DNA of 64,000 nt, from assembly GCA_051362555.1 (NCBI GenBank), contig CM120640.1, positions 55,654,788-55,718,787 of the forward strand, read 5' to 3'. Shown here piece by piece: positions 21,601 through 24,600 of the stretch. The translations under genes were made by a program, and so were the position numbers. The notes below the pieces were generated by a model. The model ran no database searches, had not been told where the DNA came from, and saw nothing but the letters and a program-made list of their open reading frames with translations. Every line of letters begins with the position of its first letter. The stretch's first letter is position 1. Source of the stretch: Lingula anatina. Its lineage: Eukaryota > Animalia > Brachiopoda.

Positions 21601-24600
21601 GGTACACAGGAAAATTTATTTTATGGTATGTTTCCTGCTGAAGTGAAGAGTTGTCATATCTTTAAGAATTCAGATTCATTTTTCAGTCAGTTTTTAAATT
21701 GTTCTTTATGATAGATTCTGAATGATAAGGTTTGAACATGCAAAAAGTTGCAAATTGAAGATTGCATAAAGAAATATATCCCCTCTTTAATGCAAGGCAA
21801 CAAATTGTGATTTGAAAATAAATGTTCAGGCGTAATTCTACCTTAGCTTGTGTGATAATTTTAAAGTTTTTGCACTTTTGGTAGTTATTAGATGCATGCT
21901 TGTTGTGGGATTTCTGGTTGGTATGCTACCCAATTTTTTAGGTTTCCGTATGAATGCTAGCTCCTGGCCTTCCTTCCTGATCAAATGCTTGGATGGAGCC
22001 ATCATTACCCCTCCAGACCTGCTAAAACCCGTAAGTTTTCAGCCAAAATGTCAAACTGAACATATGTTTATAAAAACTTTGTTCCTGGCTTAAGTAGGTA
22101 AATGGTTAAAATAACTTTATCAACTTATTTATTATTTTTATGTACAGACACAGATGTGTCTGTACATATTGCCATCACCTGCGTCTGTCATCGCCGTCGT
22201 TGCCGATCCTGGCGCCGTGCACTTTCAGTGTAAACACGATACGTGGAAGACAGTTTTACTTTTTGGCTTTATATTTACAAAGCTGATGAATATTCATAAA
22301 ATGCAGGTCAAGTTCGAAAATCGGCATGATCGGGCCATTATTGTAGAAGTTATGCTGTTTTTTCACTTGGCATGTTAACAGTCTTATTATTTAACTAATA
22401 AGACACATAAAAGTGTTTGTTTGACTTTTCCTGCATCTTTACAACATTGTTAGTTGATTTTGTAAAAATGATGGTAAACTTGTTATTGTGTATTGTGTAA
22501 TTAAGTGTCAGAAATGGAAATAAACTCATATCATTGCAGTTTGTCAGATTCAATCATTCCCTATGCTCAGAATGGAAGAAATTGGACATTTAACACTGCT
22601 CTATTTATATTTTTCCCATCTCATGGCAGTAAACTGTTAATTTTGTTTTATGTTCAAAATTGTTAAAAATGAAAAAAAAAAAAACATTTCAGAACAGGGC
22701 TGTCTTGTTTACATTTTGGCATTTTCAAGTTGTGACTTTGAAGTTCCATGGGCCTGAAGACCTTTGCTAGTCACATTTTCTGAATATCCATGATACTAAT
22801 ATTTTATTATTAAAAATTGATGGTCATTATGCTGTTAAACATTATGTAATATTGCATCAAAATTTGAAAAAAACCTATTTTGGGCACTGCTCCCATGATG
22901 ACCATTTAAGAAAAACCGTGTCACTTCAGAATCTCAGAATGGAAGAAATTGGACATTTAACACTGCCCTATTGATATTTTTCCCATCTCATCAATTTTTT
23001 TGGTTGATCATATAAAAATGGCAGTAAACTGTTAATTTTGTTTTATGTTTAAAATTGTTAAAAATGAAAAAAATGTAATATGTAATATTGCATCAAAATT
23101 TGAAAAAAAACTTTTTTGGGCACTGCTCCCATGATGACCATTTAAGAAAAACCATGTCACTTACTGTTCTCAAACTTACAGGAAAGAAACATATGGGACT
23201 AAAATATAGCTTCAGTAGGCAATGCAATCTGCCAGTTAAACAGTTTTTTTTTTTTTTTTTTTTTTGTGAAAATTTAATTTTTCACATATTGGCATTTTCA
23301 AGGTGTGACTTTGAAGTTCCACAGGCTTGAAGACCCATGCTAGTCACATTTTCTGAAAATCCATAATACGTATATTTTATAATTAAAAATTGATTGTCAT
23401 TATGCTGTTAAACATTATGCTTGTTACACATTTTACTTACATTGGTATTACCTGTTGAGCATTATTAAAATTTGATGTTGAATTTGCAGTTTAACATAAT
23501 GTACTTTTGCATCAGAATTGACAGTAGCTTTTTTTTTGTTATTTCCTGATTTTTGTCTGTACATTTGACAGCTTTGCTGCCTTGTTTTCTTATGTTATGA
23601 ATTGCGCAGATTTTGAAACACGTTTGTAGAAAATTTAAAACTAAACCCTTCAAATTTTGTCTTCTCAGTCAGGGCAGAAATGAATCTTTCTATTACTAGT
23701 TGCTTAACTTCACAGTGAAGGAATGTCCTTATAAGCTAGCAGTAATAAGAACATTTGGTGCTGAGTTTGGCATTGGTAAATGTGAAACATCACCTTGAGT
23801 TGACACACAACTACAAAGTAACTCCTTGCACTGTAACTGAATGACAACCTATTTGTAATGGTCATGCGTTGTGGTATAGGTTTATAGTTTAAAATGTTCT
23901 TACTGTGCATACCTTTCTCTCCGTGTCCAGTGATTTCTGTAGACAAAAAGGTTGTCAAATAACCTTACCAATTAAACATTTAATGTCCAGAAGCTAGCTG
24001 TTTTTCCTATATGTACACAAGAAATGTGCTTTGTTTTCTAGTGGCCTTTTAAAAGGTTGTTAATGTTAGAACAAAAATGTTTTAGATGGCAGCTGTACAA
24101 GAAATTTAGTGCATGTGGTAGTGGTGGTTTTTAGTTATGTATTACTGCTTTTTACTTGCATTGTTGGTGAGTATTTAGCATGCTAAGTTTTCTACCCAAC
24201 TGGTTTTTTTCAAGCACATCTTAGTGTGACTGTTTATCCAAAAGGGGAAGTGTTTATCCTATTAAAGCTTTCATTTGTGAAAAGTTATCTAATGTGGAAA
24301 ATTGTACACACACACTAGGTTTTCGTGTCAACCCTTCCTCTTGGCCATTGTTTTTGCAAAAGACCCTAAGTGGTGCCGAGTTAGCAGGGGAACACTGTTT
24401 TAGAAGGGTATGTACATGACCTATTCAGATGAAGACCCAAACATTCCTTATTAAAAGGTTTGTGCAGTTTTATTGGTTTAGGTAAATTAGAAGGACTATT
24501 CTTTATATTTATGGTATGGAAAAACCTTAAAAAAGCAACTGAAAAGTTAAGGGTGAACAACATGAAGATCCAGGATATTATGAAGGGTGGTTTAATTAAG

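Follow-up and report, generated by a model that had tools for sequence, protein, structure and literature searches.

Tandem alternative exons encode the arm of the second MBT repeat in the Scm gene of Lingula anatina, a pair probably derived from a single duplication that chitons share

The Scm gene of the brachiopod Lingula anatina carries two homologous exons, A and B, that lie in tandem between shared flanking exons and encode alternative versions of the linker and arm of the second MBT repeat (MBT2). On balance we favor a reading in which A provides the main transcript, B is likely a minor form, and the pair probably goes back to a single duplication shared with chitons. An earlier note on this DNA had proposed mutually exclusive tandem exons in an Scm gene; the frame logic of the exons and the RefSeq isoforms X1 and X2 support that proposal.

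The window, the whole 64,000-nt stretch of DNA analyzed here, contains a gene whose exon E is a 100% match to Polycomb protein Scm isoform X2. Mapping proteins P0004 and P0121 by tblastn, across the whole protein, placed the Scm coding span at 18621..31185 on the plus strand, where it encodes 642 aa with two MBT repeats, a SLED and a SAM domain. Pfam found all of these domains in both Lingula isoforms, and the same domain search found no MYM-type zinc finger in the Lingula Scm protein. The upstream constitutive exon U (19311..19545, plus strand) encodes the MBT1 core; its last codon position, in phase 1, belongs to the junction glycine, G124. A fly allele, G275E, would map to this glycine in our alignment register, but literature searches gave no confirmation of the allele and it carries no weight here. 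The downstream constitutive exon E (25357..25600, plus strand) begins in phase 0 and encodes the MBT2 core with its methyl-lysine cage. Between the two lie exon A (21942..22030, plus strand), which encodes the linker and MBT2 arm, and its paralogue exon B (24319..24407, plus strand), which encodes an arm of the type seen in molluscs and annelids. The Lingula RefSeq cluster has two members, isoform X1 with exon A and isoform X2 with exon B, both of 642 aa; the proteins XP_013401177.1 and XP_013401178.1 differ at 16 residues, all inside 127-153. The exon pair is already present, therefore, in the automatic RefSeq annotation. Elsewhere in the window, at its very edge (63419-64000, minus strand), there is an open frame of 194 residues whose tail is acidic and which may resemble the end of a retrotransposon pol protein.

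Exons A and B are equal in length and phase: each spans 89 nt, has AG directly before it and GT directly after, and is free of stops in the frame of U, which confirms the earlier description of two paralogous exons running from phase 1 to phase 0. Scripted joins left the frame open through exon E for both U-A-E and U-B-E. Including both exons (U-A-B-E) led to a stop at the TAA at 24367, within B, and including neither (U-E) led to a stop at the TAA at 25377, just as had been read from the letters. The full frame is kept only when either A or B is used by itself. We propose that forms with both exons or with neither, having early stops, would be removed by nonsense-mediated decay. No third copy of the exon was found in the window by tblastn and blastn.

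The two exons share 13/29 residues and 43/89 bases, and 10 of the 13 codons for identical residues differ synonymously, in agreement with the many synonymous differences remarked on earlier. This likeness is not due to chance, because each exon, searched alone, hits one and the same stretch in structures of SCMH1, SCML2 and Scm, and because the RefSeq pair differs here only. A merger of two alleles or of paralogous genes during assembly would be another source of paired exons. Identity at only 43 of 89 bases, flanks that are unduplicated save for a weak short likeness, RNA that joins A to E, and the presence of the same pair in a chiton effectively refute such an artefact, which had been judged unlikely at the outset on the strength of the divergence.

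Raw-read runs bearing the same species label numbered nine, and four of them (X1, X4, X6 and X7) were aligned to positions 24290-25720. The share of each run that was read came to about 6, 6, 6 and 25 percent, so that depth was shallow; tissue was uncoded, and a junction was listed from three reads upward. Exon E had read coverage in all four runs. Loose read ends at 25357 corresponded to the last 30 bases of A in 9 reads of run X1 (consensus agreement 1) and in 5 reads of run X7 (agreement 0.99), and such ends were too few for listing in runs X4 and X6. With agreement this close to complete, there is little or no skipping in runs X1 and X7, and no exon-skipped form was found among their loose ends. 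The junction 22030>25357 (A to E), which the earlier note had suggested mapping, is thus attested by 9 + 5 reads, whereas 24407>25357 (B to E) was listed in none of the four runs at the three-read threshold, that is, at most two qualifying reads per run. A is the main spliced form in the runs readable here. As for the splicing switch postulated in the note, its exon pair and frame logic hold, but in both runs that yielded sufficient reads A dominates, and the B junction is unlisted.

Exon B left fainter traces in these RNA data. Run X1 showed no depth over B, which, set against 9 A junctions, gives a 95% upper bound of about 28% for the share of B in that run. Most B coverage in runs X6 and X7 extends into introns: about two reads of run X6 continue from B into the downstream intron, and about three B reads of run X7 take in the upstream intron. 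Summed over bins, depth in run X4 comes to 10 + 21 bases, a 31-base piece ending at the B donor; arithmetic on these depths makes it most simply one spliced B read, which is not a listed junction. B is likely a minor form in these data, its use being argued by the RefSeq model and by conservation. Alternatively, B could be a relic in Lingula that A has replaced and that is seldom or never spliced in, in keeping with a B junction listed in 0/4 runs, with the 9 A junctions and empty B depth of run X1, and with the weakest pyrimidine tract among the acceptors. We regard this as quite improbable, as B is the more conserved copy (22/29 residues shared with chiton B), retains its frame and splice sites, is modeled by RefSeq, and accounts most simply for the piece in run X4.

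How the choice between the exons is made can be narrowed from their splice signals. The intron between A and B measures 2288 nt, and exclusivity is therefore not steric; no U12 sites were found, and the donors (GTAGCT, GTAAGT and GTATGT) depart from the U12 consensus. These observations argue against steric exclusion and U2/U12 incompatibility. The spliceosome would then choose A or B, and competition between splice sites, together with decay of the out-of-frame forms, would be the simplest mechanism. The acceptor of exon B has a pyrimidine fraction of 0.43, the lowest among the acceptors scored. A CA repeat at 24306-24315 stands where the pyrimidine tract of B would be. Competing RNA structures of the docking-site/selector kind were sought in this single genome, where none of 14 duplex tests went beyond z -1.4 and five local folds were unremarkable.

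The intron stretch upstream of A (21880..21939, plus strand) resembles 24148-24210 upstream of B and is a weak candidate for a shared splicing element. A likeness as good was reached by 2/500 shuffles (p 0.004) for these windows picked post hoc, and the 8-mer common to both stretches occurs 6 times in the window; likeness between the downstream introns of A and B gave p 0.054, and between the upstream 200 nt, p 0.40. TGCATG, the Rbfox motif, occurs three times in all on the sense strand of the gene, at 19955, 21893 and 24110; as noticed post hoc, every copy lies in the introns before A and B, and two are within 210 nt of acceptors. Between A and B, the region 22457-23519 contains locally duplicated intron segments of 59-142 nt that are 89-98% alike; they are probably a dispersed repeat, similar text recurring elsewhere in the window. 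Just ahead of exon B, the model of isoform X4 of the chiton Liolophura (P0132) begins with 10 intron-like residues, and reads of Lingula run X7 cover the intron directly before B (24290-24318). Delayed splicing of B could explain these two observations, as could an internal start that omits MBT1.

By structure alignment the alternative segment comprises the linker and the MBT2 arm, in line with its earlier placement as the N-terminal arm of MBT2; its counterparts are residues 103-131 in the SCMH1 construct and 106-134 in that of fly Scm. The methyl-lysine cage, an Asp and three aromatics, corresponds to D173, F197, W200 and F204 in a register predicted by alignment from the fly numbering in PMC2693881. 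All four residues fall in constitutive exon E, where the cage had been expected. In the MBT architecture described in PMC2673432, every arm rests against the core of the repeat before it, and arm 2 therefore lies on MBT1. The swapped arm would thus be expected to pack on the MBT1 core. In Scm, methyl-lysine is reported to be bound by MBT2, while arm 2 lies on MBT1; with the cage in the one and the arm on the other, the swap should not alter the cage directly and could influence histone binding only by an indirect route. Sharing the MBT2 cage, the two proteins would be distinguished on the MBT1 side, by its packing, its stability or the surface it exposes, and a change in partner binding or stability would be the most likely consequence of the swap. 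Among the functions put forward in the earlier note, altered packing or partner binding is favored, and retuned histone-mark affinity becomes the weaker guess, as arm 2 lies on MBT1.

AlphaFold modeling of both isoforms, which had been suggested as a check, was carried out with 50-row alignments containing both arms and gave nearly the same secondary structure for the two. The A model matched the solved two-MBT structures of SCML2, Scm and SCMH1 with TM 0.92-0.96, values that stem in part from likeness to known structures, and confidence over residues 121-150 was 53/61/83 for A and 59/65/88 for B, a gap too small to interpret. Among 386 (redundant) arm rows, Lingula A alone lacks F27; that the main transcript should lack it hints at a real difference in packing. 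The near-identity of the predicted folds also agrees with a reading in which both exons are used and their proteins are equivalent, the pair persisting through cell-specific use or setting the amount of Scm through stop-containing forms. An unaffected cage, a single arm in most lophotrochozoan records, and early stops in the forms with both exons or neither fit this idea as well. We consider it rather unlikely: 16/29 residues differ, type-specific residues are common to two phyla, the loss of F27 is confined to Lingula A, and skipped forms are absent among the loose ends at 25357.

The same arm was then compared across other animals. We looked up 30 clusters, with at most 15 members listed for each (for example, 15/24 for Mytilus and 15/109 for oyster), and among the members listed two clearly different MBT2 arms appeared in three clusters: those of Lingula, the chiton Liolophura sinensis and Timema. 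Liolophura isoforms X1 and X2 are both 566 aa long and differ at 11 residues, all in the arm segment. The chiton pair comes from protein records. ORF P0448 is a free-standing exon between intron-like flanks; its arm is one change away from chiton A, and its borders are the same. Thirteen of the 15 named lophotrochozoan clusters have a single arm among the members listed, although their genomes may also carry an unannotated A exon; a single arm is likewise what the fly, vertebrate, echinoderm and most mollusc Scm records fetched show. Isolated-exon arm ORFs (37 among 139 new representative matches) share their borders, one between G and F and one before V, which indicates that the 89-nt exon unit is old; the borders recur in ORFs of vertebrate, echinoderm and mollusc type. 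Most of the 120 rows from a homologue search with an A profile were generic arms of arthropods and vertebrates, and none of these rows was a new named protein of A type. Two ORFs, P0547 and P0555, each consist of an arm exon standing alone, score as ancestral-type and, like chiton A, have F at site 21; they could be unannotated A-type exons of another group. A second arm match in Tubulanus proved to be the MBT1 arm, and so not a second MBT2 arm.

The Timema case is built differently. In six of seven records (P0020, P0067, P0177 and P0388-P0390) a 62-residue unit is present twice in tandem, as diverged copies; the unit begins at the equivalent junction glycine and takes in the MBT2 arm and half of the core, up to and beyond the cage aspartate, from the core's start; Bacillus stick insects have one copy in 3/3 records. 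Unlike A and B, the two Timema units stay in frame when both are used. The Timema pair is possibly an independent exon duplication in stick insects.

The earlier note had called the Lingula pair old, and it is old or at least recurrent, since the chiton also has it. To place the exons in time we assembled 46 named, hand-chosen single-arm rows, 23 lophotrochozoan and 23 ecdysozoan or deuterostome, over 29 columns. Three sites separate the two groups: site 5 is A in 23/23 ecdysozoan/deuterostome rows versus 1/23 lophotrochozoan rows, site 13 is L in 22/23 of the former and Q or K in 20/23 of the latter, and site 26 is C in 1/23 versus 20/23. Both B exons read P/Q/C at these sites and both A exons read A, I and not C. 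Some deep-branching rows also have C26 and some have I13 (P0420, P0445), which makes these sites homoplastic. A log-odds score, which in leave-one-out classed 22/23 rows correctly on each side, gave +13.8 and +16.4 for the B exons and -7.7 and -12.1 for the A exons. Arm identity is 22/29 between the B exons and 17/29 between the A exons, compared with 13 within Lingula and 18 within the chiton. The B exons cluster with the one arm present in other molluscs, annelids and a nemertean, and the A exons keep insect- and vertebrate-like residues.

Both 29-column trees recovered a starred clade of the two B exons and 21 lophotrochozoan rows (support 95/88 and 97/91) that excludes both A exons and two limpets. 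In free trees the A exons never form a clade, and Lingula A is a long branch; its join with Drosophila is a long-branch pair. A match of A to the fly arm and B to the vertebrate arm was dropped, as with 46 rows fly and vertebrates both fall on the ancestral side. Single-clade AU tests rejected neither A+A (p 0.34), Lingula A+B (p 0.20) nor chiton A+B (p 0.27). On a constrained backbone with four trees, from which Hadrurus was left out as identical to Limulus, one old duplication had the best likelihood. These comparisons make it somewhat probable that Lingula and the chiton share one duplication. By the early Cambrian, brachiopods and molluscs were already separate lineages. Following the duplication, P5, Q13 and C26 would have appeared in B and A would have kept the older states, and B would have become the only annotated arm in most lophotrochozoans. 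The limpet arms (Patella P0094, Lottia P0303) lack P5, Q13 and C26 and lie outside the B clade in both trees, yet their scores of +7.0 and +15.7 fall on the B side, with each of the two arms raising the score of its fellow; limpets may have retained A reciprocally.

The pair may instead have arisen twice, in lingulids and in chitons, from a B-type exon that would be a duplication hotspot, as Timema suggests, with the A copies drifting back to resemble each other. Chiton A and B both carry an unusual A-[L/I]-E at sites 22-24, where P23 is found in 43/46 rows, and this shared motif favors a chiton-specific origin or conversion. The A exons remain ungrouped in free trees, Timema has an apparently separate duplication from the same junction, and convergent tandem-exon events are common according to the available text of PMC9741552. 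Nor does the AU test reject independent duplications (delta logL 9.5, p-AU 0.19), but they have the lowest likelihood of the four hypotheses (ELW 0.10) and need parallel P-to-A and Q-to-I changes, loss of C and gain of a terminal P in both A exons. We therefore hold two origins to be possible but distinctly less probable than the single shared duplication. Extending that shared duplication into a fuller history is speculative: the duplication would date to stem lophotrochozoans, of Cambrian age, with a choice by tissue or stage in brachiopods and chitons that alters MBT1-side binding, B fixed in most other lineages, A maybe in limpets, and stick insects reinventing the swap at the same junction.

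Homologous mutually exclusive exons form a well-described class, often ancient and often convergent, as set out in the available text of PMC9741552, and the Lingula pair is a real further case of it. Like the tandem duplicated exon substitutions in the parts available of PMC9741552, PMC8373072 and PMC5740500, it consists of two equal-length, tandem, homologous exons, of which one at a time keeps the frame; the available text of PMC9741552 stresses ion channels and muscle or nerve genes, whereas the Lingula gene encodes a chromatin reader. In the supplement files obtained for the two human catalogues PMC8373072 and PMC5740500 (1 and 10 files, whose gene tables are perhaps incomplete), SCMH1, SCML2, L3MBTL, SFMBT and MBTD1 gave 0 matches. 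RefSeq isoforms X1 and X2 of Lingula and of Liolophura make exactly these exon choices, as automatic models, and literature searches, whose scope did not extend to subscription journals and bioRxiv supplements, found no published description of either pair. What is new here is that the chiton Liolophura shows the same pair, differing in this segment only. Through the pair, a chromatin reader would join a splicing class whose known members are mainly channel and muscle genes. The Scm repeat with reported methyl-lysine binding is not MBT1, and an arm pair retained by two phyla, with a further apparent duplication in Timema, would mark the MBT1-side surface as tunable and offer natural variants of it. 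Within the Scm/SCMH1/SCML2 family (PDB 2R57, 2P0K, 2BIV), the Lingula protein shares the two MBT repeats, SLED, SAM and conserved cage residues, but has two arms where fly, vertebrate, echinoderm and most mollusc records have one. A close parallel is mouse Scmh1, whose long and short isoforms under PTBP3 arise, according to PMC13681404, from a cassette event in which part of MBT1 is lost; a functional effect of this splicing is reported. Both are cases of alternative splicing inside the MBT region of an Scm orthologue; the mouse gene deletes a cassette, whereas Lingula swaps one homologous exon for another.
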